Assembly (NCBI GenBank): GCA_038207335.1
Contig: JBBQZX010000016.1
Location: 32,001 to 96,000 of the forward strand
DNA length: 64,000 nt
Origin: Chthoniobacterales bacterium
GTDB lineage: Bacteria > Verrucomicrobiota > Verrucomicrobiia > Chthoniobacterales > Chthoniobacteraceae
Direction of reading: 5' to 3'
Shown one piece after another: positions 30,001-63,616 of this stretch (position 1 is its first letter; the number at the start of each line of letters is the position of its first letter). The translations under genes were made by a program, and so were the position numbers. The notes below the pieces were generated by a model that saw only the letters and a list, made by a program, of their open reading frames with translations, searched no databases and was not told where the DNA came from.

Positions 30001-33000
30001 ATCGTCAGCGCGCCGGCGATGCGGCCCGCGAGGCCGGCGCTGCTCACGACGAAGAACCCTTCGCCTTCCGTGAGCGATGCCACATCCGGGCCGGCCGCGT
30101 CGGCTTTTAGATGAAGCTGCACATTCGTTGCGCCGACGCGCAGCAGCACGGTGCCGTCGGTCTTCGTGAAGCGCTCTAGCGCGAAATTCGCGACGAGGGT
30201 TTGGCCCGAAACGGTAAGCGTGACGTTGTCGCCCGCGAGCCGTAGATACGGCCCTGCGGGCAGCGTGATCGCGCCCGCGACCGGCACGGTGTCAGCCACC
30301 GCGGCGGTCGTCGTATTCACCTCGACCGAGAGGCCCGCCGAGAAGCTGAAGCCGAGCGCAGGATTCACCGCGACGGTCGCCGAGAAGCGGCCCGCGAGCC
30401 CGGTCGGCTTCACGATGAAGCCGCCCGTGCCATTCGTAATGCTCACGAATTCCGTCGTCCCATCGCCTAGCGACAAGCTCGCATTCGACACGTCGATCTT
30501 CGTCACTTTCACCCCCGACACGATGCTCTGCGAGAAGCCGAACGTGCCGCTCAACGCCTGCCCCGCGACCGTCAGAGCGAGGTCGCCGGTGAACGACGCC
30601 GTCGGCGCGAGCACCGTGCCGCCGGTGATCGTGATCGTGTCGCTCAAGCCGTCCGCTTTCGGGAAAGTCACCGTCTTGTCCGCACCCGCGTTGTTGAAGC
30701 GCACGGTTGCGCTGCCGGTGAATGTGAACCCGGAGAACCCGATGATTTCCAGCGTGCCCTCCGCATACACAGCATATGTGTAAGTGCCCGCCGCTCCGAA
30801 GCGCTGCACGCCGACGCGCGCATTCGAGAGCAGCACGCCTTGCGCGGCGGGGTTGCGCGTCGTGCCGTCGAGCATCACCGGACCGCTTCCCATGAAGACG
30901 CTCACGCCCGACGCGATCAGCGTGTCCACGCCGGCAGTCTGGGTGAATGAAATGCTGTCGCCCTGGATCTCCACGAAGTCGCCGACGCGGATCGTGAGCC
31001 CAGCGACGAAGACGCTGAACGTGCTCGTGCCGTCCGGGAATTGGATCGCAAAAGTGCGGCCGTTCAGCACGATCGTCTCGTCCACTGCGACGCCAGTTTT
31101 GTTCACGCGCAGGCCAATGCTGCCACCGACCTCGAGGCTGCCGGTCGCCACCGCAACATCGCCCGCGAGGAAACCCGCAAAGCCCGTCGGCAGGATTACG
31201 AATGCGCCCGAGCCGTTTTTCAGCGACTGCCCGGCGACAGTCACCGTGACATTGTTGACTGCGACGCGCATCACTTTCGAGCCGTCCGCGCGCGTCGTCT
31301 GGTCAAAGAAAAAGTCGCCGGTAAGCACCGCGGCTTCGTTGCCGATCGTCACGTTTGCGCCGATGATCGCGACGCGGATGAACGGCCCGGCGGGCACTTG
31401 CAGCGTCACCTCCGCCACGCCGACTTTGTATGTTTCATCGACCGGCTGCGCCGCCGTGTTGATCTGAATGCTGACCGCGCCGCCGGTCACGCTGAACACG
31501 CCCGGCGCACCGAGCGTCGCGCTCACCGTGAACGACGCCGCGACTCCCGCGGGCGTCACGAGCAGCGCGCCCGTGCCATTCGTGACGTTCACGAACGTCG
31601 TCGCACCGTCCTTGATTTGCAGCGTCAGGTTGGTGATCGCCACGCTCACCTGCGTGTGAACCACGCCCAAGACCGTCGCCGTCGTTTTCTGAATCGTGAA
31701 CTCCGCCGAGAGCGTCTGCCCGAGCACCGTGAGCGTCGCCGGCTGACCGACGAGCGTCGCGACTTGCACGTAATTTCCAGCCGGCAACGAGAGCGTCATG
31801 CTGACCCCGGCGACGAGGAACGTTTGATTCACGAGCGCGCCGGTCGTGTTGAGTTGCAGCCGCAGACCGGCGGAGAAAGTAACGCTCGGAATACTCACCG
31901 CGACCGTCCCGCTGACCTCGCCCGCGAGCCCGGATTGCTTGAAGACGAATGCGCCGCCGCCACTCGTGACGGTCACAAAATCCGTTGTGCCGTCGCCGAG
32001 CGCGAGCCCCACGTTGCTCACCGCCACGCTGACCACGCGGTTCGGAACCGTGCCCGTTGCCTCGAAGCTGAAATTGCCGCTCAGGCTCTGGCCGAGAATC
32101 TTCGCGGTGACATTCGTCCCCTCAACCCGCACGAACGGCCCGACCGGCAGTGCCAGCGTGCTCGGCGTCCCAGCGATGTCGAAAGTCTCATTCACCGCGG
32201 CATTCGTGTTGTTCACCGCGACGCTGAACGCCGCGCTCAATTCGACATTCGGGATCGTGATCAACGCCGCACCCGCCACCCGACCCGCGATCCCTGCACT
32301 CGTCAGAACGAATGTCCCCTCGCCTTTCGTGACGCTTAGGAACGTGCTCGAACCGTCGCCGAGCGCGAGGCTCACATTGCGCGCGCCGACCCGCACGATT
32401 TTGTCAGTCGGGCTGCGCGTCAGTTGCTCGAACGAGAACGTGCCGCGCAGCGTTTGGCCCGCGACTTTCAACTGCAAATCGTCGCCCGTGACGCGAAGGA
32501 AAGGCCCGGCGGGCAGCACGAGCGTTTGAATGCCGCCGCCGACTTCGATGCTTTCGTTCACCGCCGCGAGCGTGTTGTTGATCTCGACCGTGAATGCGCC
32601 GCTGAACACGACGTCCGGCACGTTCACCACGACCGTGCCGCCGAACCGCGCCGAGAGTCCCACCGTGCTCAGCACCGCGAATCCAGAGCCATTCGTGACG
32701 TTCACGAAATTCGTTGGAGCCGTGCCACCGAGGCCGAGCGTGATCGCGCTCAAGGCGACGCGCACGACCTTCGAGCCGTCGGTCGCCGCCGTCTGCTCAA
32801 TCACGAAATTCCCAGTCAGCGACTGCCCGAGCACGCCGAGCGAAACCGCGCTCCCCTCGACGCGCAGGAACGGCCCGGAAGGCAGCGTCAGCGTGTTCGT
32901 CGCCGCACCGATTTTGAATGTCTGATTCACCGCCGCCGTCGTCGCGTTCACACGCAGCTTGAAGTTGCCGCCAAACGTCACGTCGGGAATCGCGGTCATC

Positions 33001-50076: not shown

Positions 50077-53000
50077 CTACCTCACCCGCAGCCGCAGGAA
50101 GGCGCGGGTGGGGTCGAGGAGGCTGATGGGGACCCGGGCCGTGCGAATTTCCACGCCCCCGCCGCTGCTGATGAGGGTGTCGGTGGTGCCGGTCTCATAC
50201 CAGGTGCCGAGGTCGTTGCTCCACTCGAGCTGGAGGGCGAGATCGGAGGCGGCGAGGCTGCGCTGGTAGGTGAGGCTGAGGTAGGTGCCGTCGTTGGCGG
50301 CCTGCGGACGGGCGGCGATGGCGTCCGGGAGGGTGGGGTCGAGGCCAAAGGCGCGCTCGATGACATTCGGAAGCCCGTCGCGGTCGGGGTCGGCCAGATC
50401 CTGCGCGTTGTTGAGGTTTGCAATGTCGGCGAAATATTTCTGCCTCCAAGCCTGCCCCGGTGTCGGCACGACGATGGACACGCTGCTGAAGCCGGCCGTG
50501 GCGAGGGTGTCGGCAACACCCGAGCTCACTCGGAGGCCGGCCAGCGCGGTGGTGGGCAGGGGCGTGACGTGGTTGCCGACGACCGTCCATTCGCCGGCAC
50601 CGGGGGTGCCGGCGGTGGTGGAGTAGGCGGCGGCGAAGGTATTGCCCACGCGGACGAGGCGGAGCCAGAATTGCCCGGAGATGGAGACGCTGGCGCCGGT
50701 CTGGAGGACGGCGCTGCCGGTGGCGTCGCGCTGACGGAAGCGGAGGGCCTGCTGGGCGCGGTCGTAGGCGAGCTCGGCAAATGCGGAGTCCGCCGCAGTG
50801 CTGCCGCGGAAAGTGATGCCGGTGGTGGCGGAGGCGGTATTGGTGGGGAAGAAGTCCACGCGGGTGACGAGGATTTGGTCGCCCGTGGCGGTCGAGGAGA
50901 CGAGCTGGAGCTGGTCCGCCGTCCCGGCGACGCCGCCGCCGGTGACGGTGAAGGCAGCGCTCGCGGCGTTGTAGCCGGAATAGCCGTCACTGGCAGGGAG
51001 GCCGATGTCCGTGGCGGTCCACAGCGCGGGCAAGGGAGCGGCGAGCGAAGCGGCCTGGGTGGAGGAGAGGGCGTAGTTGAAGATTTTCAAGTCATCGACG
51101 GCGCCGGTGAAGAATGCGCCGCCGAAGAGCGTGCTGCCTACGCGGATGCCGCCGGGGGCATCGCGCAGGGCGGTGGAGCCGGTGCCGGTGGCCTGGAGTG
51201 CGCCGTCCACGAAGAGCTTCATGGCGCCGGTGGCATTGGTGCGGGTGGCGAGGACGTGGTGCCAGGTGCCGTCGTTGATATTCGTGGCGGACTCGATGGT
51301 GGTGCCCGCTCCGGTGTTGCCGGTGCCGAAGGCGACGTGATTTCCCCCGACGGAGATGCCCCAGTCGTTCGCGACGCCCGGCACGTCGGCATCGACGATG
51401 GGCTTCCCGGCATACCACTGGCCCGTGCCGCCGACAGCCGTAGTTTTCAACCAGAAGGCCACGGTGAAGTCGCTCGTGACGGCCGCCGGGAGCTTGACGA
51501 AGCTGCTGGTGCCGTTGAGCTGCACGGCCTGTGCGCCGATTTTCCCGGTCGTGAAAGTCGCGTCCATCGCGTCCCCGTGGTTGTTGAAACGCGTGACGTC
51601 GCGCGCCGTGCCCTCGAAGCCGTAGCCGGCGACCATGGAACTGCCGGTCTGTGCGAGGCGCGCGATTTCGTCCACGGCGAGGATTTTGTTGTAGAGGCGC
51701 GCTTCGTCGAGGGAACCATTGAGGAAGCCGTTCGCGCCCGCGATGCTCCCGAGGGTGAACGTCGAGGGGGCGGTGCGGGCGGAGGTCGGGCCGGTGCCGG
51801 AGGCGCTGAGGAGGCCATCGACGTAGAGGCGCATGGCACCGTTGCCGGTGTCGAGCGTCGCCGCGACGTGGTGCCACGCGCCGTCGTTGATCGTCGCGGC
51901 GGAGGTGATCGTCAGGTCGTTCTGCCCCACCCCGAACGCCGCCTTCCCCCCAACCATCGCCAGCCCGAAGTCCTTCGCCACCCCCGGCACCTCCGCATCG
52001 ATGAGGCCCATCCCATTATACCACTGCGGCCCGCCAGCCGTCGCTGTGGTCTTCACCCAGCACGCGACGGTGAAGTTCCGCTCCACGGTTGCTGGCACAC
52101 GGATCGACCCATTGCTCCCATTGAAAGTCGCAGCGAGCCCATCCACGCGGCCCGTGGTGTAAGTCACCCCGCCGCTGGCCGTCCCGTGGAAATTGCGCCC
52201 CCCAAAATCGCGCGCATTCCCCTCCATCTTGTAATTCGCCACCAGTCCGTCGCTGGCCACCCCCGCCGTCACGTCATCGAAAGCCCAGTCCTGATTGAAC
52301 GCATTCTGGTCGTCGAAATATTGGGCGATGTTCGCGTTATCCCCCACCGCGCCCGTCCCGCCGTCCACATCCACCACCATGTTCGTGCTGTTGCGGTTCC
52401 CGAGTTTCCAATACGCCGCCCCGCTCGCGCTCGGGAAGATGCGCCACTGCTGGTTCGTGCCGCCGGTGTCGTCCCAAGCGATGATATTCCCCGACGGATC
52501 GGTCGAAAATCCCGCCACCTCCATCGCCTTGCCACTGGTGAAGTTGGTGAATTTCCAGTAGCCGCCACTGACATAGGTCGCGAGCCACTTCTGCAAGCTC
52601 GAGCCGCTGTTTGGATTCTGTCGAACATTCGAGCCCGCCGTCGTCCCATCCGCCTCCAGCAGCTTCTGGCTCAGGCGCGACCGGAGCTGGTACACGTGCC
52701 CGCTCTTCACAGGGCAGGGCCACAGCGGCTGGCTGTCGGTCCAATACTCATCGAAATTGGAAATCCCGTCCCCATCGGCATCCCCCGCCGCCGGCTGCCC
52801 GGCAAAGCCGATCTTCTGCCGCTCCCACTCATCCGAAATCCCATTCCCATCCCCATCCGTGATCCCCATATCCTGCCGCATCGCCTCGATCAGCCGCCCG
52901 ATCCGCCGTCGTGCCTGCGGGCTGTCTTCGTTCCCGTAATTGAACCCATACGGATAATAATGGACGCCAGATTGCCGGATCTCCGCGCCGGGCCCATCGA

Positions 53001-53409
53001 AGAGCTTGATATACCGCCGCAGCGCCGGGCCCACCCACACCCCGCCCCCGTCGAAATTTCCCGCCCACGACCCATAAGTCCCACTCCCCAGATAATGGGC
53101 CGTCTCGTGAATCGCCACCTGCTCACTGATCGAACCGCCAAAGCCCAGCGTCCCATTATAATCCGATTGCGCCGTCGGAATCCCAGGATGCCACGACACA
53201 TTGATGTCCACATTGATCTGCGTCGTAGAATTATACACCGCCATCGCCACATCCATCACAGCGGCGACTTGCGCCCGCTTCCCAGGATTATTCGCCTCGT
53301 CGAAAATGTAGCCGATGTGGTAGGTCAGCGCGCTGCTGGTCGCGAGAAAAGTGAACCAAGCGCAAGCCGCGAGGATCTGTGGGAAGCGACCGGAAGAGCG
53401 AAAGGACAT
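50077..53409 (-). CDS. Secreted zincin-like + Ca-binding + ricin-B lectin + 2x LamG + beta-sandwich protein (1110 aa)
   Basis: ATG 53409 with signal peptide; IHETAHYLGSG (HExxH); DGDGNGISDEWE and DADGDGISNFDEY; QxW repeats (LQKW, NQQW, NQDW); two FTVAxWxKT...INDGxWHHV...L(Y/F)VDG domains; C-terminal DPDRDGLPNVIERAFGLDP...FLRLRVR. Confidence 0.9.
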   Translation of the reverse strand: MSFRSSGRFPQILAACAWFTFLATSSALTYHIGYIFDEANNPGKRAQVAAVMDVAMAVYNSTTQINVDINVSWHPGIPTAQSDYNGTLGFGGSISEQVAIHETAHYLGSGTYGSWAGNFDGGGVWVGPALRRYIKLFDGPGAEIRQSGVHYYPYGFNYGNEDSPQARRRIGRLIEAMRQDMGITDGDGNGISDEWERQKIGFAGQPAAGDADGDGISNFDEYWTDSQPLWPCPVKSGHVYQLRSRLSQKLLEADGTTAGSNVRQNPNSGSSLQKWLATYVSGGYWKFTNFTSGKAMEVAGFSTDPSGNIIAWDDTGGTNQQWRIFPSASGAAYWKLGNRNSTNMVVDVDGGTGAVGDNANIAQYFDDQNAFNQDWAFDDVTAGVASDGLVANYKMEGNARDFGGRNFHGTASGGVTYTTGRVDGLAATFNGSNGSIRVPATVERNFTVACWVKTTATAGGPQWYNGMGLIDAEVPGVAKDFGLAMVGGKAAFGVGQNDLTITSAATINDGAWHHVAATLDTGNGAMRLYVDGLLSASGTGPTSARTAPSTFTLGSIAGANGFLNGSLDEARLYNKILAVDEIARLAQTGSSMVAGYGFEGTARDVTRFNNHGDAMDATFTTGKIGAQAVQLNGTSSFVKLPAAVTSDFTVAFWLKTTAVGGTGQWYAGKPIVDADVPGVANDWGISVGGNHVAFGTGNTGAGTTIESATNINDGTWHHVLATRTNATGAMKLFVDGALQATGTGSTALRDAPGGIRVGSTLFGGAFFTGAVDDLKIFNYALSSTQAASLAAPLPALWTATDIGLPASDGYSGYNAASAAFTVTGGGVAGTADQLQLVSSTATGDQILVTRVDFFPTNTASATTGITFRGSTAADSAFAELAYDRAQQALRFRQRDATGSAVLQTGASVSISGQFWLRLVRVGNTFAAAYSTTAGTPGAGEWTVVGNHVTPLPTTALAGLRVSSGVADTLATAGFSSVSIVVPTPGQAWRQKYFADIANLNNAQDLADPDRDGLPNVIERAFGLDPTLPDAIAARPQAANDGTYLSLTYQRSLAASDLALQLEWSNDLGTWYETGTTDTLISSGGGVEIRTARVPISLLDPTRAFLRLRVR

Positions 53410-53559
53410 GAGGGAATCTGCGGTGCGAGTGGGGAAACAGCGTCGAAGGACACCGTGGCGAGACTCTCCCGCAATCGTCCGATTTTGCAAGGAATCCCAA
53501 GCAGGCATGAAACAGGAGTGGTTTGCTTTCGACGCCGGATTCGTCCTTCATCGCTGTCC

Positions 53560-55854
53560 ATGAAATCGTCGATCGGGCTGCTCTTGATGTGCTTTTTCTC
53601 CACGATGCCGGTCGCGGAGGCGAAGCCCAGGCTCGCGGAGGAAATCTCGGCCCACTCGCCGGATGGGGCTTTTGCGATGCGGGTGCTGCGGGACGGCGAG
53701 GCGGACCCGGACAGCAGGGACGGTATCCAATCGGTGCAGTTGGTCGCGATGCCGTCGCGGAAGGTGCTGGCAACGCTCTTCAAGGATGACGAGGAGGCGG
53801 GCAGCCCGTCGCTGCTCTGGGCGCCGGATTCCCGACGGTGTGCTTTTTCGAGCGCGCATCGGCGCTGGACTACGACGCAAGTCTTCGAGCGGGTCGGAAA
53901 GGGCTTCCGGGAGGTGGAGCTACCGGAGCTGGGGATGCGGACGGAGTGGATCGACGGGAAGCCGCGGACTTTCCATGTGCGCAATGAATACATCACGCCC
54001 GAGCGGTGGCTGAAGTCCGGGGCGCTGGTGATCGACGACGACGCGATCATGCGGGTCTGGGCCCACGGACAGGTGGAGGCGGAGGCGGAGAACCGCCTCC
54101 ACGAGCTCGTGCTGGAGCCGAGCCGCGATGGGAAGACAACGATCCGCTCCGTGCAGGAGGCGCGCGGGGCCGCTGGGATCGGTGCGGTGCGCAGCCGGGC
54201 GGTGCCGGGGAAGATGCGGGGGCCGGGGGTGGTGCCGGGCCGGCCGGATGCGCTGGAGGTGGGCTTTGAGCTGTCGTGCGTCTCGCCGGATGGGAAGATC
54301 GCGATCCTGGTGCCGGACTTCGGAGTCGTCGGGCAGGCGGCGCGCAATTTTATCGTGACGACCTCGCTGCCTCTCGCACCGCTCGGGATGCTCGACGTGC
54401 CGCGCGCGTTCGCAAGCGGACTGCGGGCGGCGTGGAATCCGACCAGCACAGCGGCGGTCGTGACCGTGGAGGCGATGACGACCCCGCAGGCGGTGCTGTT
54501 GCTGGAGTTCCGCGACGGGCATCTCGTCCGCCAGAGCGATCTGCTCGCCTCTCTGGTCGCGCTGTTTCGTCCCGACTTCCGAGCCAGCAAGGCCACGCCG
54601 TGGCTGGAGACGGAGCGGCGCTCTCCCTTTGCCATCGTGGACGACGACTCGTGGAAGTGGCGCTGGGACGGCGACCGCCTGGAGGTCGAATGCCGCGCCT
54701 CTTCCCAGCCGGACGGCAATATCTCGGACGGCGCACGCGTCTGGTGGGCGCAGCTCCACGGCGTCTGGAGCGTGCCCGAGGGACGGTTCATCGAGTCGAA
54801 AATCACGCGCACCTATGACAAGGTGATGCCAGACGAGAAGGTGCCCAAGTGGACGCAATACCCGGACGACGCCGATGCGCCCGCGGAGGAGGAAGCCGTG
54901 GACGCCGACGAGGCGAAGGACGCTGCGCTGACGATCCTGCGCGCACTGGACGCGTCCTTTTCCATCACTTGGAAAACGGAGTTGCACGAGCTGAGCTTTG
55001 AGGAGCGGGGGAAAGCGCCCGCGCGTCTGAAGTCGATGAAGCAGCTCGTCGCCGAGCGCGACAAGACGGACCTCATCGTGGACGACGACGCCCTCGCCAC
55101 ACTGCCGCTGTGCTTTCTCTCACCCGATGGCGAGTGGCTGCTCGTCGTTTTCCGCGGCATCGGCGACGTGATGCTTTACACGCGTTCTCCCGAGGGCTGG
55201 AAAGTCGAGGCGACGGACGAAAGCATCGAGGAGCTGCGGATGAAGGTGGGGAGGTTTCTGATGGGCGAAGTCGGGTTGGAAGGCGCGGAAGCCACGCCGG
55301 AGGTGACCGTCAGCTTCGTCGATTGGAGCACGGACTCGGGCCGCATCCTGCTCGCGCTGGATGGGAATCTCCAAGTGCCCGAAGGCCACCCACAGGCCGT
55401 GGACGGCGGGCTCACCATCCGAGGCTGGCTGTGCTATTACAATTTGCGCACCGGGAAATTCGAGCTCACCGACCGGCTGGAGGCGCACAACCGCTGGGCG
55501 GTCGGTCGCGGCAATGGCCAGCCGGACGATTGGGAAACGCAAGCCCCTCTGCACGCCGAGCCACTCACCCCCGGCGCACTCCCCTCGCCTGCCGGTACGC
55601 GCTTCAACGCCGCCGACCACGCGCTGAATGCCACCTACAAGCTGGCCCTCGGCCGCCTCCCCGCCCCCGAGCGCGAAGCCTTCCGCGCCCGGCAGCGCGA
55701 GTGGTTGGCGCAGCGAGATCTCGCCGCCTCGCTCCACGCCGTCCAGAACTGGAGCCCCTTCGCCGAAGCCGCCCGCCAAGAAGGGGCCGCCATCGCCACG
55801 GAAGCTCGCGTGGCCGAACTCAAAGCCGCAGGCCCGCTGCATCAGGCGCCGTAG
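53560..55854 (+). CDS. Secreted multidomain protein with C-terminal LprI/DUF1311 (lysozyme-inhibitor-like) domain (764 aa)
   Basis: MKSSIGLLLMCFFSTMPVAEA|K signal; three SPDG...W(A/N/S)xxS blocks; C-terminal AADHALNATYKLALGRLPAPEREAFRARQREWLAQRD...TEARVAEL. The ORF-track extension to 50569 is antisense shadow. Confidence 0.85.
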   Translation: MKSSIGLLLMCFFSTMPVAEAKPRLAEEISAHSPDGAFAMRVLRDGEADPDSRDGIQSVQLVAMPSRKVLATLFKDDEEAGSPSLLWAPDSRRCAFSSAHRRWTTTQVFERVGKGFREVELPELGMRTEWIDGKPRTFHVRNEYITPERWLKSGALVIDDDAIMRVWAHGQVEAEAENRLHELVLEPSRDGKTTIRSVQEARGAAGIGAVRSRAVPGKMRGPGVVPGRPDALEVGFELSCVSPDGKIAILVPDFGVVGQAARNFIVTTSLPLAPLGMLDVPRAFASGLRAAWNPTSTAAVVTVEAMTTPQAVLLLEFRDGHLVRQSDLLASLVALFRPDFRASKATPWLETERRSPFAIVDDDSWKWRWDGDRLEVECRASSQPDGNISDGARVWWAQLHGVWSVPEGRFIESKITRTYDKVMPDEKVPKWTQYPDDADAPAEEEAVDADEAKDAALTILRALDASFSITWKTELHELSFEERGKAPARLKSMKQLVAERDKTDLIVDDDALATLPLCFLSPDGEWLLVVFRGIGDVMLYTRSPEGWKVEATDESIEELRMKVGRFLMGEVGLEGAEATPEVTVSFVDWSTDSGRILLALDGNLQVPEGHPQAVDGGLTIRGWLCYYNLRTGKFELTDRLEAHNRWAVGRGNGQPDDWETQAPLHAEPLTPGALPSPAGTRFNAADHALNATYKLALGRLPAPEREAFRARQREWLAQRDLAASLHAVQNWSPFAEAARQEGAAIATEARVAELKAAGPLHQAP

Positions 55855-55931: not shown

Positions 55932-58900
55932 TTAGAAGGAAGGCTCGACGAGGTAGGTGCGGGTGCCAGTGCCATTGCCCGTCTCGCTGATGATGATGTC
56001 AGGGCGGCCGTCGCCATTCGCGTCGGCGATGTGGAGGTCGTAGGCGCCGCTTTGCAGGAGGGTGCTGGAGCCGGCGCGCAGGGTGCCATCGGGGCGACCG
56101 GCGAAGACCATGAGGATCCCCTGGTCTGAGTCGGGCGTGCGGGTGACGACGGCGGCGTCGGCGAGGCCGTCGCCGGTGAGGTCGCCGACGGCGAGGACAT
56201 TGTCGTTGAAGCCGGGGAAGACGACGGTGGAGGAGGCGGCGAATGCGCCGGTGGGGTCTTGGCGCATGAGGATGAGCTCGCTCTGGAAATCGCCGCTGGG
56301 GAGCAGGCGCAGGCTGAGCAGTGCGACATCGAGGCGACCGTCGCCATCGAAGTCGCCTGTGGCAATGCGATCGAAATATTCGACAGGCACGACGTGGACG
56401 ACCTCGGGGGCGAAGGTGCCGTGGCCGTCGCCGAGCCGGATGGAGAAGGCGGACATGCCCTGGGGGGCGTCCACGGAGGTGAGGAGGAGGTCCGGGAAGC
56501 CGTCGCCATTCATGTCGGCGGTGAGGCCGTTGATGCGATTGGCGGCGTCGAAATCCATGGGTGTGCCGAAGCCACCCTGGCCATCGCCGAGAGTGACGAA
56601 GGTGTGGTCGGCGGTGCCGCCGGAGATGATGTCGAGGAAGGCGTCGTCGAGCGGGTTGACGTTTGCGAGGGTCAGGCCTCCGCCGAGGCCGGCGCTGGTG
56701 CCGATGCTCACTGGCGCATCGAACTCGCCCGGCGCGCTCACATTTGCCAAAAGCAAGGCGAGGCCGCGCGGGCCGGGGAAGGAGTTCTCAGGGTTGTCTA
56801 TGAGGATGTCGAGGCGGCCGTCGCCATTGAGGTCGCCGAGCGCAACGGACTCACCGATGTCGGAGCTGAAGCCGGGGAGCTGGAAGCGGGTGGTCTCGAT
56901 GAAGGCGCCGGTGTTGTCCCCGCGGCGGATGGAGACGTAGTGCGGGAAGTAATTCGAGGAGAGGACGACGGCGTCAAGCTTGCCGTCGCCATCGAGGTCG
57001 CCGGTGGCGAAGCGGTAGTCGAATTCATTCGGATTGCTCGATGCGGAGGCGACGGGCGGGAGGGTGAATGCGGGCGCGGGTGGCGGCTTGATCGCTAGGT
57101 CGAAGACGTTGCGCGGCACGCTGGTGGTGAGCATGGCGACGCCGGTGAGGGGGTCGATGGTGTGGATGCGGCTCGAGTTGTTCGGCAGCGGTTGCGCGGC
57201 GAAGATCACGTCTTGCCGGGTGATGGCGAGGCCGTAGATCGGAGCGGCGTTGGTCATGCCGATGACGCGGATGAGTGCGCCGGTCGCGGGGTCGAGTTCG
57301 ATGAAGCGGTCGGAGTTCACCGAGCCGTCCGCTGTGGTGAAAAGGGTGCCGTCACGGGTGAAGACGAGGGCGTGGATGGCATACGCGCCCGGCGCTCCGA
57401 TGCGCGTGGCCGCTCCGGTAAAGGGGTCGATGCGGAGGAGTTGCGCGGTATTGGCAAAGTCGGGCGCGGGTCCGATCTCGATGCCGTAGAGGCGGTGGTC
57501 GGCGGGGTTGTAGGCGAGCGAGGTGCAACGAATGGGCGCGCCGCCGTCGTTGCCGAAGGAGCCGATGGGCCTGGCAGTCATGGCGAGCGGGTCGTATTCG
57601 GAAAGGCCGGTGAGGTTCGCGATGTAGAGCGTGGAGATTTCGTCGAAGGCGAGGCCGAAGCCGAGGCCGGCATTGGGCCTGCCGAGCAGGCCCTGGTTGC
57701 GCCCATCCGCGGGATTGAGCAGCGTGAGGAATGAGCCGGAGCCCGCGGCGCTGCTGGCGAAAAGGGTGCCGGGCGGGATGGAGGTCGGGACGGATTGGGC
57801 CCGGAGGGGATTCGAGCCGAGGAAGACTTCGGCGCTGTCGGTGAAGCCGTCGCCGTCGGTGTCGGACTTGGTGGGGTCGGTGTTGGCGGCGAGTTCGGCA
57901 CCGTCGGAGAGGCCGTCGGAATCGCCGTCGGCGAAGAGCGGATCGGAGCCAAAGGCAAGTTCCTGTCCGTCGCTGAGGCCGTCGCCGTCGGTGTCGGCGA
58001 GAGCGGGGTCGGTGCCGAAGTCGGCTTCATCTTCATCGGTGAGACCGTCGCCGTCGGTATCGATGCCGAGCATCAGCAGGCGCTGGGCAGTGACGGGATT
58101 GCCCTGAAGGAGTCCGGGATCGGTGACCGTGTTGAATCCCTGAAAGAGCACGACGTTCGCTTCGTAGCGTTGAGTGGGTTCGTCGAAGCGCGCAACGACG
58201 GTGAGCTCCTTGCCGCCTTCGCCATACACGGTGAAGCGCAGCGGCCCTTTGTCGAGGGTCCGCTCCGAGCGCAGGTTCACGACCGAGCGCCCGACCACGC
58301 GCGGAGCAAAAGCGAGCGGGCTGAAAATCGGTGTGCGAATGACGCGTGCGCCGCGATAACCCTCGGCATCGGAGGCGGTGCTGTCTTCATAAGACTCCTG
58401 GTTCCGCGAATTCACCGCGTCGATGACCGTCACCCCGCCGCGTCCGCCGTGCCCGCCGCCGATGCGGAGCCGATCCGTCGAGTCGAGAAGGACGCCCTGC
58501 GCGGCATTGACCGTGACGAGGCCCGTGCGACCACCACCGCCGCCTCCACCCCAAAAGGCATCCACATTTCCCTCGGAATAGACCTCGAAAAACAGCGCAC
58601 GAACGTGGATCGAGCTCTTGCTCGAGCCGTCGCCGCCATCACCGCCGCGCGCGTCCACGACCGGGGCGGCGGAATCGAAAGCTCCCGAACCGGTGATCGA
58701 CCGTGCGGTGGTGAGGAGGACGCCAGCACCCCCGCTACCGCCCGCGCCCCCGCCCCCGCCGTAGAGATTCATTCCACCGAGGATAAACACCGACACGCTG
58801 AGTTCCCCTCCTCCACCGCCTCCTCCGCCGCCGGTCGTGAGGAAAGTCGAAAGCGCGGGAGCGCCGAGACCCCGGCGGCCATTGGTCGAGCCGTCGGCGA

Positions 58901-61900
58901 CATTCAGCGCACTTTGCCCCTGCTCGATGAGCTGCCGCACGGCTTCCGGGCAAGCGACTCCAAGCGTACCAATGCACTCGACGATGGCGGCTACGAGACT
59001 GACTGGGTCGAAGCTCGCGTCTTCGCCCGGGGCACCTCCGATGCCGCGCGCGCTGCGCGTTTGGTTGTCGATGCGGCGCGGGGGTGGAAGCTGGAACGGC
59101 TCTGAAACGCCAACCGGGTCGTTACCGTTCTGGCCGTAGCTGGCGGAAGATGGGACGCCGTCGCCGCCTGCACCTCCGTCCCGGCTGCGTAAGCCGCCAG
59201 CCTGCTGAATGGCATTCGCGCCCCGCTCGCCACTCGCGTCGATCGTTCCGTAGATCCGCGTCTCGCCGAGCACCGTCGCATTGAAAACGCCGGAAAGAAT
59301 CCGCACGCGCGCATCCCGACCGAGCGTGAGCGTGGACAGGCGCATCGGCGCGGGTTCGGTCAGGTCGAGGTGCTCGCCCGCAGACACTTCCAGCTCCGGC
59401 AGGCCGCGCACGGTGAGTGGGATTTCGGCGAAAAGTGCATCGTCATGGGCACGCACGAGCCGGACGCGATAGACGCGCGTCTGGCTCTCGCCGAGGTCGC
59501 GGATCGCGTCGGTATCGAGCACGAAGCCCGCGCGGTCCCCGGCGGCGACGAGCGTGCCGGGGCGCATCCCGCCAGCGAGCGAGCCGTCGGGATTGCGCAT
59601 CTCCACGCGCAGGTCGCCGGTCAAGTCCGAGCCCGTCAGTCGCAGCGGTTGCAGCGCGTTTTCCTCGATCTCCGTCGGCTCGATGCTCGTGATGGTGGGC
59701 GCGATTCCGGGCGGATTCGCGGCTGCGGCTTCATCCACCGTCGGCGTGGTAAAGTGCGTGATCGACGCCACTGCGCCATCGCCGGTGGCATTCACCAGCG
59801 CCGTGATGCCCTCATCGACAAACGTCCCGTTTGCTTGCAGGAATCGCAGCCGCAGCGCCGTGCCCGGCAGCCGCGAGACGGTCAGCGGGATCGTCACCGA
59901 CACGGGTGCTGTGAAAGTCAGCCCATCCGGCCCGAACTGCGCAGCGCCGAGTGTGCGCCGGCCCGGCCCCGCGTCCGGCAGCTCGGCGGAGCCGAGAGTC
60001 CGCGCGGTGATCGTGGCATTCGCCGCGAGCGCGCCCGGCGGGATGGTGACGCTCGACCGGAAATCCGCGGCGGGCACAGTCGCGCCAAAAGCCGCAAGCA
60101 CCGGCACCTCTCCGGGCGTGGCGACCGGCGGCAAAACAGCGACCGGCGTCGCGACCGAGACGACTGCGGGGCTCGCCGTCAGTGCCGCGGTGATTTGCAC
60201 CGCGCCAGCAGGTGGTATGGCTGGCGCGGTGTAAATCCCCGCGGGCGAAATCGTCCCGAGCGCGGCGCTTCCGCCCGGCACGCCATTGACGCGCCAGGCC
60301 ACCGAGCGATCCACCTGCGCAGTCCCGACGCGTGCTGAAAAGGACACCGTCCCCCCGACCGAAACCGCGGGCATTTCCTCGGCATCCGGTGCGATGACGA
60401 CATGCTCGACCACGGTAAAATTCTGCGGCGACACCGCGCGCGAGCCGTCCGGCTGCGTGGCCGTGAACGCACCCGTGCGCGAGCCGACCGGGACGATCAC
60501 GCGCGCCTGAAACGCATCGAGCGAGACGATCTCGCACGGAATCTCACCCAGTTCGAAGACCGTCTCCGCGCCGGGCGTCGTGGAGAAGCCGAAGCCGGAA
60601 AGATCGATCTGATCCCCGGGTGAGCCACTGCCCGGATTCGGCGCATTGACATAAAAGCGCGACCGCGCGCCGCCGAAGCTGGTGAGCTGCACGGTCGTCG
60701 TAGTCGGCGCGCCCGCGTGGCCGTTGCGGTCGAATGGCGTGACCTCGATCGTGTAATTGCCGAGCGCGGAATCGCTCCTGAAATCCAGCTTCACCGAGCC
60801 CGTGCGAGTGCCCGTCGCGGTCGGCAGAAATTCATCCGCGGGAAACTCGGATAGCCGCGCCGACCCGCCCGGCTCGGTGAAGCGCACGCGCAACAGCTCC
60901 AGATCGTCGTCCGCATCCGCAACCTCGAGCGAAAGCCGGGGCCGCACGCGATCCATCACGCGCACCGGGCGATCGTACGATGCCACCTCGGGCGCAAACG
61001 CCACCACGCTCGGCGCCACCCCCGTGTTCGCCGGGCCCGTGATATTCACCGTGAAAGAGACCGTCTGGCTCGCCACATCCTGCCCGTCGCGGAGAGTCAG
61101 CGAAAGCTCCACAGGCCCGAACGGCAGGCTCGCAGAATCGAGCGGGAGCGTCGCCCGCCCGCTCGCGCCGGAGATGTGTGCGAGCGACGCAGCGAGGTCC
61201 TCGGCGCTGCTTCCCAGCGCATCCTGCCGGGTGAACTTCAGCACCGAGATGTCCCCATCGGCGTCGGCGAAGTCGAACGTCACCACCCCCGCGGTGCCGC
61301 GCACGAGCGTCGCCGGCGCAACGAGATTCGAGAGCACCGGCGCCACCGGCGCCACCGCAGTGCCCGCGAATGTGAACTGCAACGCCGTCGGATCGAACGG
61401 CACCCGCCGATCGAATCGAAAGGTGAACGTATCCGTGCTCTGTGCGACACCCTTCACGAGCACGTCGCCGAAGCTCACCCCCGCGTCGCTTAGCGTGATC
61501 GCGGCTGCATTCGTCGTCACCGTCGCCGCCACATTTTGAAAACGGCGCGTGCCCGAGTTCTTCACGCGCGCCCGGTATTCGTATTCGTAAAGCGTGCGCG
61601 TGATCCGCTCCTCCCGCACCTGCACGATACTGTCGAGCGTCAGCTCCGGCACGGATGCCTGCGCGAATGCCCCACTCGGCGCGAGGAGTCCGCCGGCCAG
61701 CAGCACCGCCAGAAAGCGCCTCCGGCGGCGGAGCGCGAGCAGACCCGCACCGGCGAGCAGCATCGTCGCGGTCGTCGGCTCTGGGACGGTCATGCCCGTT
61801 TGCAGGGTCTGGATAAAATTGCCTCCGGCATCGAACTGATTGACCTCAAACGACTGCGCCCTCGGGATCGCGCTCGCCCCCCCCAGCCAGATGAAGCGCA

Positions 61901-62270
61901 CAACAAAGGGATCCGCCAGCCGCGGGAAGTTCTTCAGCGCCAGCGCATCGTAGGCGCCGTCCGACGCCAGATTCGCGTCGGGCTGGAAAGTGAGCACGTC
62001 CCAGTCGCCATTCACCGGCGGCGCCGGGTCGGAGAGATTGCGATACAGGCTCGGCGGGAAGAAGACATCGAAGCCGATATTCTCCTGAAAAATGCCGCCC
62101 GGATCGCTGACCAGATACCGGTATTCCCAAAGATCGCCGCCCGGCCCAAAGGAATCGTCGATGTCGCGCGCCTCGTACTGGATGCTGGCGGACTGAGCCC
62201 ATCCGTGCGGCACCAGCGAAAGCAGCATGGAACAAACAAGGCGAAACAAGTGGACCGAGTGCGTTTTCAT
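55932..62270 (-). CDS. 2112-aa secreted protein: N-terminal domain, internal PEP-CTERM, second signal peptide, Ig/IPT-like, ZU5-like, Gly-rich, TSP3-like repeats, two propellers
   Basis: MKTHSVHLFRLVCSMLLSLVPHGWA|Q; VPEPTTATMLLAGAGLLALRRRRR-FLAVLLAGGLLAPSGAFA|Q; IPPGAL...FGPDGLTFTAPVSVTIP...ITHFT; DTDGDGLxD-type x4; seven FG-GAP blades at the C-terminus. Confidence 0.9.
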   Translation of the reverse strand: MKTHSVHLFRLVCSMLLSLVPHGWAQSASIQYEARDIDDSFGPGGDLWEYRYLVSDPGGIFQENIGFDVFFPPSLYRNLSDPAPPVNGDWDVLTFQPDANLASDGAYDALALKNFPRLADPFVVRFIWLGGASAIPRAQSFEVNQFDAGGNFIQTLQTGMTVPEPTTATMLLAGAGLLALRRRRRFLAVLLAGGLLAPSGAFAQASVPELTLDSIVQVREERITRTLYEYEYRARVKNSGTRRFQNVAATVTTNAAAITLSDAGVSFGDVLVKGVAQSTDTFTFRFDRRVPFDPTALQFTFAGTAVAPVAPVLSNLVAPATLVRGTAGVVTFDFADADGDISVLKFTRQDALGSSAEDLAASLAHISGASGRATLPLDSASLPFGPVELSLTLRDGQDVASQTVSFTVNITGPANTGVAPSVVAFAPEVASYDRPVRVMDRVRPRLSLEVADADDDLELLRVRFTEPGGSARLSEFPADEFLPTATGTRTGSVKLDFRSDSALGNYTIEVTPFDRNGHAGAPTTTTVQLTSFGGARSRFYVNAPNPGSGSPGDQIDLSGFGFSTTPGAETVFELGEIPCEIVSLDAFQARVIVPVGSRTGAFTATQPDGSRAVSPQNFTVVEHVVIAPDAEEMPAVSVGGTVSFSARVGTAQVDRSVAWRVNGVPGGSAALGTISPAGIYTAPAIPPAGAVQITAALTASPAVVSVATPVAVLPPVATPGEVPVLAAFGATVPAADFRSSVTIPPGALAANATITARTLGSAELPDAGPGRRTLGAAQFGPDGLTFTAPVSVTIPLTVSRLPGTALRLRFLQANGTFVDEGITALVNATGDGAVASITHFTTPTVDEAAAANPPGIAPTITSIEPTEIEENALQPLRLTGSDLTGDLRVEMRNPDGSLAGGMRPGTLVAAGDRAGFVLDTDAIRDLGESQTRVYRVRLVRAHDDALFAEIPLTVRGLPELEVSAGEHLDLTEPAPMRLSTLTLGRDARVRILSGVFNATVLGETRIYGTIDASGERGANAIQQAGGLRSRDGGAGGDGVPSSASYGQNGNDPVGVSEPFQLPPPRRIDNQTRSARGIGGAPGEDASFDPVSLVAAIVECIGTLGVACPEAVRQLIEQGQSALNVADGSTNGRRGLGAPALSTFLTTGGGGGGGGGELSVSVFILGGMNLYGGGGGAGGSGGAGVLLTTARSITGSGAFDSAAPVVDARGGDGGDGSSKSSIHVRALFFEVYSEGNVDAFWGGGGGGGRTGLVTVNAAQGVLLDSTDRLRIGGGHGGRGGVTVIDAVNSRNQESYEDSTASDAEGYRGARVIRTPIFSPLAFAPRVVGRSVVNLRSERTLDKGPLRFTVYGEGGKELTVVARFDEPTQRYEANVVLFQGFNTVTDPGLLQGNPVTAQRLLMLGIDTDGDGLTDEDEADFGTDPALADTDGDGLSDGQELAFGSDPLFADGDSDGLSDGAELAANTDPTKSDTDGDGFTDSAEVFLGSNPLRAQSVPTSIPPGTLFASSAAGSGSFLTLLNPADGRNQGLLGRPNAGLGFGLAFDEISTLYIANLTGLSEYDPLAMTARPIGSFGNDGGAPIRCTSLAYNPADHRLYGIEIGPAPDFANTAQLLRIDPFTGAATRIGAPGAYAIHALVFTRDGTLFTTADGSVNSDRFIELDPATGALIRVIGMTNAAPIYGLAITRQDVIFAAQPLPNNSSRIHTIDPLTGVAMLTTSVPRNVFDLAIKPPPAPAFTLPPVASASSNPNEFDYRFATGDLDGDGKLDAVVLSSNYFPHYVSIRRGDNTGAFIETTRFQLPGFSSDIGESVALGDLNGDGRLDILIDNPENSFPGPRGLALLLANVSAPGEFDAPVSIGTSAGLGGGLTLANVNPLDDAFLDIISGGTADHTFVTLGDGQGGFGTPMDFDAANRINGLTADMNGDGFPDLLLTSVDAPQGMSAFSIRLGDGHGTFAPEVVHVVPVEYFDRIATGDFDGDGRLDVALLSLRLLPSGDFQSELILMRQDPTGAFAASSTVVFPGFNDNVLAVGDLTGDGLADAAVVTRTPDSDQGILMVFAGRPDGTLRAGSSTLLQSGAYDLHIADANGDGRPDIIISETGNGTGTRTYLVEPSF
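55940..57050 (-). repeat. Seven FG-GAP/VCBS repeats (C-terminal propeller)
   Basis: DLDGDGKLD, DLNGDGRLD, NVNPLDDAFLD, DMNGDGFPD, DFDGDGRLD, DLTGDGLAD, DANGDGRPD. Confidence 0.85.
57810..58065 (-). repeat. Four 22-aa bacterial TSP3-like Ca-binding repeats
   Basis: DTDGDGLTDEDEADFGTDP / DTDGDGLSDGQELAFGSDP / DGDSDGLSDGAELAANTDP / DTDGDGFTDSAEVFLGSNP. Confidence 0.85.
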
Positions 62271-62452
62271 AAGACTACCAAGGGTAAGCCGCCGGGCCGT
62301 AAAGCTGACGGCCTTAGCACCATAGTGACCGCGCTGCCGACCGCCCATCAAACTAAAGTCACAAAATAGCGCCGGCTTTTCGTCGGGCGACGCAGGCTTG
62401 AACTGCCGCCGACGGGGTTGCTCTTTTTGCAAAAGCTCCACACTCTCCGCTC

Positions 62453-63616
62453 ATGGCCAAGCCGCTCCGCAAATCGCCCGGCGTCCTCAACCGCGCACTG
62501 GAAAAGCCGCTCGTCGCGTTGCAAGCGGCGATCACCGGCGACGCGGTCATCAAGGCTCTCTTCGCCCTGCTTCAGCGTGCGGTTCCGTGCGATTTCGCCG
62601 GCGCTTTTCTCCGGCACGAAGATCACGCCTATGGCTCGGTTCCGTTCCGTTTCATGGATTCCCGGGGACGCGACTTCGGGCCGCAGCTCGCGGATGGCGT
62701 CTTCTTCCGTGAACACCCCGCGATGCCTGTGCTGCTGGCGAATCCCGGCATCCGCTTCATTAATACCCGCGAGACGCTGCCGCCGGATGAGATCCTCCAT
62801 GCTTCGCGATTTTACCGGGAAGTGATGCAGGTCATCGGCTTCCGCCATGCCATCGGGATGTATTTCTGGGACGACCCGCCTCGGATGCCGGAGGCGGTTC
62901 TCTCGGTTAGTCGCGGCGAGGGCCAGCCGGACTTCACCGATGAAGAGGTCTCGATCCTCGACCGCCTCTACCCACACATCGACGCCGCCCTCCGCCGAAT
63001 CCGCGCGATCGAAAGGGAACGCGCCGTGCGGAGCGAACTCCACAGCCTTATCGACCCGGCGCGCGCGGCCTGTCTGCTTCATTGGGACCTCACCGTGGCC
63101 GATGCGAATCGCGCCGCGCGCGAGCTGTGTGCCCGGTGGCATCTCGGCGAGGCCAGCGCCCACCTGAAGACGCCGCGCTTTGTGCTCCCCGAGCCCCTGC
63201 GCGAGGCATGCGTGGGCCTGAAAAAACGCTGGCAAGCTTCCCTCCGCGAAAGTCCCGCGACGGGCACCGCCGAGCGTCTCACCGTGCCGCACCCCGAGTG
63301 CCCCGCCCTTTTTGCGAAGGTTACATTGCACGTCCAGCACATCGATCCGCTGGGCAAGCCGGTCTTCCTCATCGAGTTCGAGCCGCCGAAAAACGACGCC
63401 GCCCCGCCGCGCCGATTGAACGGCAAAATGAAACTCGCCGCATTCACCCTCGCCGACCGCGAGCTGATCCGGCTCGTGCGGGAAGGACACAGCAACCAGG
63501 AAATCGCCACCGCGACCGGCCGCGCGCTCGGAAGCGTAAAGAACGCCCTGCACGCGATTTTCGAGAAGGTCGGCATTCGCAGCCGAGCCGCGCTCATCGC
63601 GAAAGTGGGCGACTGA
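62453..63616 (+). CDS. LuxR-family HTH regulator with N-terminal GAF-like sensor (387 aa)
   Basis: C-terminal FTLADRELIRLVREGHSNQEIATATGRALGSVKNALHAIFEKVGIRSRAAL; N-terminal SRFYREVM...RHAIGM...SRGEGQPDFTDEE...LYPHI. Confidence 0.9.
   Translation: MAKPLRKSPGVLNRALEKPLVALQAAITGDAVIKALFALLQRAVPCDFAGAFLRHEDHAYGSVPFRFMDSRGRDFGPQLADGVFFREHPAMPVLLANPGIRFINTRETLPPDEILHASRFYREVMQVIGFRHAIGMYFWDDPPRMPEAVLSVSRGEGQPDFTDEEVSILDRLYPHIDAALRRIRAIERERAVRSELHSLIDPARAACLLHWDLTVADANRAARELCARWHLGEASAHLKTPRFVLPEPLREACVGLKKRWQASLRESPATGTAERLTVPHPECPALFAKVTLHVQHIDPLGKPVFLIEFEPPKNDAAPPRRLNGKMKLAAFTLADRELIRLVREGHSNQEIATATGRALGSVKNALHAIFEKVGIRSRAALIAKVGD

Follow-up and report, generated by a model that had tools for sequence, protein, structure and literature searches.

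An internal PEP-CTERM tag running into a second predicted signal peptide, and the two-gene cassette from which such fused proteins probably arise

PEP-CTERM sorting tags are normally found at the extreme C-terminus of the proteins that carry them, and 87% of those in the survey of Haft et al. (2006, PMC1569441) end within ten residues of it. A tag of this kind lies close to the N-terminus in an open reading frame (ORF) of a Chthoniobacterales bacterium and continues without a stop into what looks like a second signal peptide, which raises the question of whether one gene can deliver two exported proteins. The ORF encodes 2112 amino acids (aa) and occupies positions 62270..55932 on the minus strand of the window, that is, of the whole 64,000-nucleotide (nt) stretch analysed here (positions 32,001 to 96,000 of contig JBBQZX010000016.1, assembly GCA_038207335.1). 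We find that the arrangement is real, conserved and not an artefact. We call the part ahead of the tag domain A, the part directly behind the second signal domain B, and the remainder the passenger (Table 1).

The junction within the window protein

Residues 162-203 of the translated ORF (window 61787..61662) read VPEP-TTATMLLAGAGLLAL-RRRRR-FLAVLLAGGLLAPSGAFA, with QAS next, exactly as described in the original prediction, which took this region for an internal PEP-CTERM with an arginine cluster shared by a second signal peptide. The identity of the tag was borne out by two hidden Markov models matching from residue 161 or 162 to 185 (PF07589, 27.9 bits against a cut-off of 20.7; TIGR02595, 20.5 bits against 16), and the named NCBIfam PEP-CTERM subfamilies searched (NF038129, PepA, FxDxF and others) matched the tail only, far under their cut-offs. 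The motif is 1951 residues short of the stop codon, and because it is not at the extreme C-terminus we describe the protein as working like an exosortase substrate and not as a canonical member of that class. The signal peptide expected at the N-terminus of such substrates is predicted at residues 1-25 from pattern and hydrophobicity.

All three parts of a Sec-type signal are present behind the tag, namely a basic n-region (RRRRR), a hydrophobic h-region (FLAVLLAGGLLA) and a c-region with small residues at -3 and -1 (PSGAFA↓Q). Judged by this layout, the arginine cluster of the PEP-CTERM appears to double as the n-region of the second signal. The window segment RRRR-FLAVLL..AFA↓QAS aligns directly with the N-terminal signal peptide of P0006, a stand-alone homologue of the large protein, in agreement with the proposed Sec-type signal.

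No stop or indel interrupts the frame. A single Logan contig of run X1 (14,821 bases, depth 17.8) covers window 60500-63000 and agrees with it in every letter, without gaps; this run is probably the source sample and counts as a second assembly, not as an independent sample. Run X2 contained only short pieces of the stretch.

A six-frame pattern search of the 5.17-Mb genome gave 66 PEP-CTERM matches, of which 5 were judged spurious by eye and 61 were kept, and about 60 PEP-CTERM proteins are encoded in the genome. The distance to the stop codon is at most 36 residues in 58 of the kept motifs, at most 56 in one, 288 in one and 1951 in the window ORF. Domain A and domain B occur in one copy each. 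Two exosortases are encoded (TIGR02602, 149.3 and 109.4 bits against a cut-off of 105.55), which supplies the genomic prerequisite for the exosortase involvement that had been proposed. The motif with 288 residues behind it belongs to a second internal PEP-CTERM (G000:C5:72740-74431, equal to L020:2741-4432, plus strand), where the frame of a SASA-family esterase with a PEP-CTERM crosses an AC-rich, intergenic-looking stretch without a stop and enters MKSMHL..AHA↓Q of a second PEP-CTERM protein. The arrangement has the look of a recent stop loss that left the second start in place, possibly an early stage of such fusions, and this ORF had no full-length match among 40 relatives at E <= 1e-15.

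Split and fused forms of the cassette

Relatives were sought by searching 1.84 billion cluster representatives (50% identity) with a profile, which returned 3,748 matches at E <= 0.001. Among the best 150 of the 3,748, which were classified, 41 were fused in the order domain A, junction, domain B, 104 had domain A only, 3 had domain B only and 2 had other layouts; 41 of 150 overstates the fused share because fused forms match both domains and score higher. Other proteins of this layout, which the original prediction had suggested looking for, are thus represented by 41 other clusters. The helix of the tag (TM1) is intact and PEP-type in 40 of the 41. Representatives with domain A only are mostly small proteins with a terminal PEP-CTERM, and the three with domain B only have an ordinary signal peptide ahead of it. 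A word-index search with alignment A1 for longer proteins, far less sensitive than the profile search, found P0005 only.

The fused form spans Verrucomicrobiota, Acidobacteriota, Betaproteobacteria and Gammaproteobacteria. Where organisms were named among the 30 fused proteins looked up, they were Verrucomicrobiae, Candidatus Solibacter, Burkholderiales, Janthinobacterium, Gammaproteobacteria and an unplaced Pseudomonadota. The gene of Janthinobacterium sp. RT4P48 (WP_436485134.1) encodes 659 aa, compared with about 1,127 aa in its cluster, and has a motif of the IPLP type. P0008 is, together with P0157, a full-length fused homologue of the window protein and is 44% identical to it over about 2,100 aa, P0004 has the same junction and is 48% identical over aa 25-305, and in the P0064 cluster 15 of 17 members are fused and two are N-terminally partial (13 fused and 2 partial among the 15 rows listed). 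Within the phylum, 400 other genomes yielded no copy of the cassette at E <= 1e-8 with only 6 candidates scored per genome, and 1 of 60 relatives clearly has it; its distribution appears patchy, which is not to say that it is absent elsewhere.

Genomic context was available for 64 metagenome loci, of which 36 had neighbouring but split A and B genes, 3 were fused, 21 had A only (many at a contig edge) and 4 had B only. Two separate genes in the relatives had been named beforehand as a finding that would speak against a fused protein. Most relatives do have separate adjacent genes, but the fusion is not thereby refuted; the split relatives instead reveal its origin in a two-gene cassette that was joined repeatedly. 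From these comparisons, A and B constitute a conserved two-gene cassette with the fused state as a minority form. Domain B is the N-terminal module of diverse passengers (S8 peptidases, PKD, He_PIG, amidase and beta-propellers), and the fused passengers are similarly varied (S8 peptidases, PKD, He_PIG, amidase, DUF5122 and FG-GAP), with TIG found in P0004 and ZU5 in P0008. The passenger of the window protein also exists stand-alone, in P0006.

The junctions were compared in 46 fused rows, 33 split rows and 43 control segments taken behind domain B. The median length is 168 nt in fused rows versus 242 nt in split rows, and the 135 nt between the domains of the window protein are fewer than at every one of the 33 split loci (140-843 nt). 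Simple loss of a stop codon is therefore insufficient to explain the junction, as had been suspected from its compactness. The loop is net positive in 46 of 46 fused rows, and the median hydrophobicity of the h-region is 2.5, compared with 2.59 in the signal peptides of split B genes (p 0.27) and 1.15 in the controls. The fused junctions end in AxA in 33 rows, in a lipobox-like motif in 9 and in small residues at -1 and -3 in 4, as counted with loose patterns that had no null control. A clear lipobox replaces AxA in fused P0064, P0075, P0107, P0115 and P0030, and likewise in split L081, L083 and L085. The second start is mostly lost in the fused rows: 9 of 46 have a methionine at the second n-region, against 30 of 33 heads of split B genes, although the two were scored over different windows. 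Counted anywhere ahead of domain B, a methionine occurs in 17 of 46 fused rows. GTG and TTG restarts are invisible in these counts because the rows are protein only.

A tree was built on concatenated A and B from the 46 fused and 33 split rows, after removal of 4 duplicate loci and of 8 rows that were partial, near-duplicate or not adjacent; it is unrooted and does not distinguish fusion from fission. It requires 18 changes between fused and split state, while shuffled labels require 25.5 on average and 19 at minimum (300 shuffles), which indicates that the state is inherited within clades. A single clade of fused rows is rejected by the approximately unbiased test (p-AU 3e-53; like the other p-values, this one overstates the case since the rows are kin), and the fused state thus arose repeatedly. 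Fused clades persist at 43-69% identity, and the window protein, P0004 and P0008 are pairwise 52-55% identical in domain A and 43-46% in domain B.

Other arrangements of the same modules were also seen. At locus L055 the two genes are split but overlapping, in different frames and only 140 nt apart; a small insertion or deletion would be enough to join them, which is a plausible way for compact junctions to arise. Two fused A-B copies, L024:6001-6918 and L026:6001-6948, have repeat-like inserts of 45-60 aa in the arginine loop that keep the frame. In P0026 (2665 aa) the order is permuted. Domain B comes first, and domain A lies towards the other end ahead of a canonical terminal PEP-CTERM, which places both modules inside one ordinary exosortase substrate. 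In P0046 (805 aa), domain A, the PEP-TM-basic tag and a second signal-like segment are followed by a passenger without domain B, so that the hairpin also links A to other partners. In P0044, P0054, P0066, P0081 and P0101, a short C-terminal beta domain stands in place of the PEP-CTERM behind domain A; it resembles the tails of P0004 and of window ORF 50077..53508 and is possibly an alternative export or sorting tail. The fused protein P0058 (1246 aa) carries two sorting tags on one chain, an internal PEP-like IPES tag and a MYXO-CTERM-like passenger tail (GGCG-TM-basic).

Probable processing of the fused chain

We think it likely that the window protein is a hairpin polyprotein that stems from a fused two-gene cassette, with signal peptidase I or II, and probably also an exosortase, as the cutting enzymes. 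Domain A would be exported by Sec behind the N-terminal signal peptide until TM1 of the PEP-CTERM stops transfer, leaving RRRRR on the cytoplasmic side. The hydrophobic segment behind it would then serve as an internal signal and restart export of domain B and the passenger, giving an out-in-out topology. Signal peptidase I would cut at AFA↓Q204, with Lgt and LspA acting in the lipobox versions, and the mature protein so released would be the same product that split relatives make from a gene of its own. The exosortase would probably cut near PEP and sort domain A to the surface, and the predicted outcome is a coupled 1:1 output of the two proteins.

An artefact of assembly or gene calling, or an isolated loss of the stop codon in a gene under decay, is a very improbable source of the arrangement. 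The window comes from an assembly that is probably metagenomic and the comparison with run X1 is a non-independent one between contigs, but the second assembly is without a single difference, the G+C content at third codon positions is uniform over domain A, junction, domain B and passenger (0.80-0.83), and the full-length fused P0008 and P0157, the 41 fused clusters and the mostly fused P0064 cluster all argue for a genuine gene. Another explanation would keep the hairpin as an uncleaved or half-cleaved two-pass membrane protein, with domain A and passenger on the periplasmic face, or with only one of the proteases acting. In line with it, an exosortase may refuse a signal that has a second transmembrane helix behind it, 10 of the 46 fused rows lack an exact PEP, and conservation of the junction falls only moderately short of that of the domains (identity of 30-65% versus 37-83% in 12 diverged pairs). 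However, AxA or lipobox-like motifs are kept where the split relatives are cut, PEP is retained as often in fused rows (36 of 46) as in split genes (26 of 33), the lipobox cysteine and Gly/Ser linkers of fused P0064, P0075, P0107 and P0115 mirror those of split L081, L083 and L085, and ArtA of Haloferax cuts a central signal (PMC7157517); we regard retention of the hairpin as unlikely.

It is also rather improbable that the fusion is a tolerated read-through with an internal restart, at M170, at GTG189 behind GGAGG or at MRRR in P0004, and that the read-through product of A is wasted or degraded. A start at GTG189 would give a 15-aa signal without a basic n-region, even though GGAGG (codons CGG AGG) lies 12 nt upstream of it and AGG is rare in the ORF (5 of 128 arginine codons). 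The n-region methionine kept in 9 fused rows favors a restart, as do the MKS start retained behind the intergenic-looking stretch of G000:C5 and the split state of the majority, but 37 of 46 rows have no such methionine and fused junctions are shortened. Moreover, domain A (16.4 of 18 core sites kept in fused rows versus 16.9 of 18 in split rows), the signal peptide and PEP are equally conserved in both states, which means that the read-through product must be useful.

Several observations nevertheless weigh against the polyprotein that we favor. Besides the missing PEP motifs and the GGAGG just mentioned, P0128 has lost PEP and TM1, P0004 has a usable internal methionine (MRRRAC..), and the ORFs of L024 and L026 end early and look young or damaged, so that these copies may be decaying. 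Among the 28 loci with a domain-A pattern and at least 1 kb downstream, domain B is next door in 23, all of them split, and none is fused, which shows that fusion is not required. The loose motif patterns, the restarts hidden from protein rows and the kinship of the rows belong here too. Long-tailed PEP-CTERMs have been suggested to be possibly non-functional (Haft et al. 2006, PMC1569441), and the fusion in HVO_0405 of Haloferax volcanii, compared below, has been called unstable and strain-specific (PMC7157517).

The role of the two domains is less clear than their layout. AlphaFold2 (AF2) predicts both with high confidence by the predicted local distance difference test (pLDDT), at 96.1 for domain A and 96.7 for domain B, which is an all-beta sandwich, and no fold match of either is clearly over background. 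The best VIA match of domain A is the Clostridium perfringens cohesin module 2w1n (Z 8.6, root mean square deviation 3.5, 118 aligned; Foldseek E 1.6e-3), with YcnI level at Z 8.5, and domain B has no fold match at Z >= 8 (best 7.7). Domain A matches no Pfam or NCBIfam family, no sequence relatives were found in the PDB at E < 0.2, and the Atlas search led to unnamed clusters for domain A (0.92) and to a CARDB-like lead only for domain B (0.87). Domain A carries a net negative charge in all 79 homologues, and the three arginines of domain B are kept in 92-95% of rows. The passenger of the window protein contains Ig/IPT/ZU5-like repeats, a Gly-rich region, TSP3 repeats (about aa 1400-1491), DUF6923 (Pfam match 1577-1712) and FG-GAP repeats (about 1755-2105), and it has no hydrophobic anchor at its C-terminus, where hydrophobicity is 0.3. 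Fused passengers in general seldom end in such an anchor, with P0058 as one clear exception, and many are clipped by contig ends. It is tempting to speculate that an anchored acidic domain A binds the arginine-bearing domain B and tethers a passenger that lacks an anchor of its own, but we hold this as a tentative idea. In a mean-field covariation analysis of the 79 paired rows, the top inter-domain score exceeded those of 8 pairing shuffles, but hub columns (G268, I135, L75) dominate, credible intra-domain contacts are few, and a contact is inseparable from shared ancestry.

Taken at its widest, the family might be a widespread, repeatedly evolved polyprotein in which an exosortase tag and a signal peptidase I or lipoprotein signal share an arginine cluster and deliver a receptor A and a docking passenger B in a 1:1 ratio. 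We consider this full version doubtful; if it is true, A and B would represent a Gram-negative pair for surface tethering that has not been described, and the members with a lipobox would mature into lipoproteins from a signal inside the chain.

The divergent gene next to the ORF has a partial match to TIGR03020 (EpsA, PEP-CTERM-associated) that is far under the cut-off, and no such LuxR-type gene was found upstream of homologue P0004. On the 3' side lies a convergent gene (window about 53500..55854, plus strand) whose product is probably secreted and has an LprI lysozyme-inhibitor domain at its end.

Table 1. Features of the ORF and its flanks in window coordinates
Feature	Position	Strand	Basis or remark
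Whole ORF P0001, 2112 aa: signal peptide, domain A, PEP-CTERM/second-signal hairpin (predicted), domain B, passenger	55932..62270	-	
Predicted Sec-type signal peptide, aa 1-25, ..PHGWA↓QSA	62196..62270	-	Cleavage site from pattern; most fused homologues have hydrophobic N-termini
Domain A, aa 26-161, predicted acidic 8-strand beta-sandwich	61788..62195	-	AF2 model
Internal PEP-CTERM, aa 162-185 (PEP 61776-61784, TM1 61731-61775, RRRRR 61716-61730)	61716..61787	-	PF07589, TIGR02595
h- and c-region of predicted second signal peptide (signal peptidase I type), aa 186-203, predicted cut AFA↓Q204	61662..61715	-	Aligns with P0006 signal peptide
Domain B, aa 204-302, predicted Ig-like beta-sandwich, conserved R222, R225, R288	61365..61661	-	AF2 model, conservation
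Passenger, aa 303-2112	55935..61364	-	Pfam
Terminator-like hairpin directly past the stop codon	55888..55907	-	Consensus match only; 10 found versus 5.2 expected in shuffles
Divergent gene, C-terminal LuxR-type helix-turn-helix, possible regulator	62453..63616	+	GerE and Sigma70_r4_2, both sub-cut-off

Relation to known sorting systems

Our literature search, which covered mainly the main text of openly available papers, found no account of an internal PEP-CTERM with a second signal peptide behind it, and term look-ups in two papers by Haft found no passage on one. The window protein resembles canonical PEP-CTERM substrates in its N-terminal signal peptide, PEP motif, transmembrane helix and basic cluster, and in the presence of exosortases in the genome. 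What sets it apart is the position of the tag, about 1,930 residues ahead of the C-terminus, and its continuation into a second predicted signal peptide. Contrary to what PMC1569441 leads one to expect of long tails, the long-tailed form is conserved across phyla here. In this family, tags off the C-terminus, once set aside as probably non-functional, have been long conserved and re-created many times from a single gene pair. Exosortase products are believed to arrive at the surface or in the extracellular polymeric substance along an undefined route (PMC12188702). Exosortase cleavage normally takes off only about 25 residues and is therefore difficult to observe, and the fused proteins offer a test with a large size shift, the property behind the use of HVO_0405 as an archaeosortase reporter (PMC7157517). 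In annotation pipelines each fused ORF passes as one protein, and the N-terminus of the predicted second mature product goes unnoticed.

The principle of one ORF yielding two proteins is familiar from other settings. The cytochrome b-c1 precursor FbcH of Bradyrhizobium has an internal signal after a membrane anchor and is divided by signal peptidase into two proteins, and the anchor-signal hairpins of flaviviruses and hepaciviruses work in the same way. These have no sortase-type tag, and they are respiratory or viral proteins and not a modular surface cassette. The present family points to bacteria that may use virus-style signal-peptidase polyproteins for surface proteins. The proposed tethering of B by A recalls cohesin and dockerin, where an anchored beta-sandwich has as its partner a small module carried by a range of secreted enzymes and adhesins. 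However, the likeness of domain A to cohesin is barely over background, and domain B is Ig-like and all-beta, not a calcium-binding helical dockerin.

The novelty of the window protein is tempered by single printed cases of internal tags in other sorting systems. In Haloferax volcanii, HVO_0405 consists of two formerly independent genes that were fused, and its central tripartite signal is cut by ArtA (PMC7157517; also covered in the review PMC9263693). Like the window protein it is a gene fusion with a central tripartite signal; it is archaeal, and its cleavage by a member of the exosortase family is real. In Myxococcus xanthus, the internal MYXO-CTERM of MXAN_5598 has been read as marking a fusion of TraA/TraB-like genes that are neighbours elsewhere, and processing and anchoring of the N-terminal part have been proposed for this single gene (Guo, Haft and Wall 2025, PMC11980579). 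The two proteins share an internal tripartite sorting tag at a gene fusion, but the tag of MXAN_5598 is a myxosortase tag, and the accessible portion of that paper mentions no second signal peptide. Compared with MXAN_5598, the family described here covers multiple phyla, was fused repeatedly and has both signal peptidase I and lipobox variants. What the window case adds is a single cassette that occurs across phyla in two states, split and repeatedly fused, in signal peptidase I and lipoprotein versions, with a cultured carrier, since a cultured Janthinobacterium carries the fused lipobox version.

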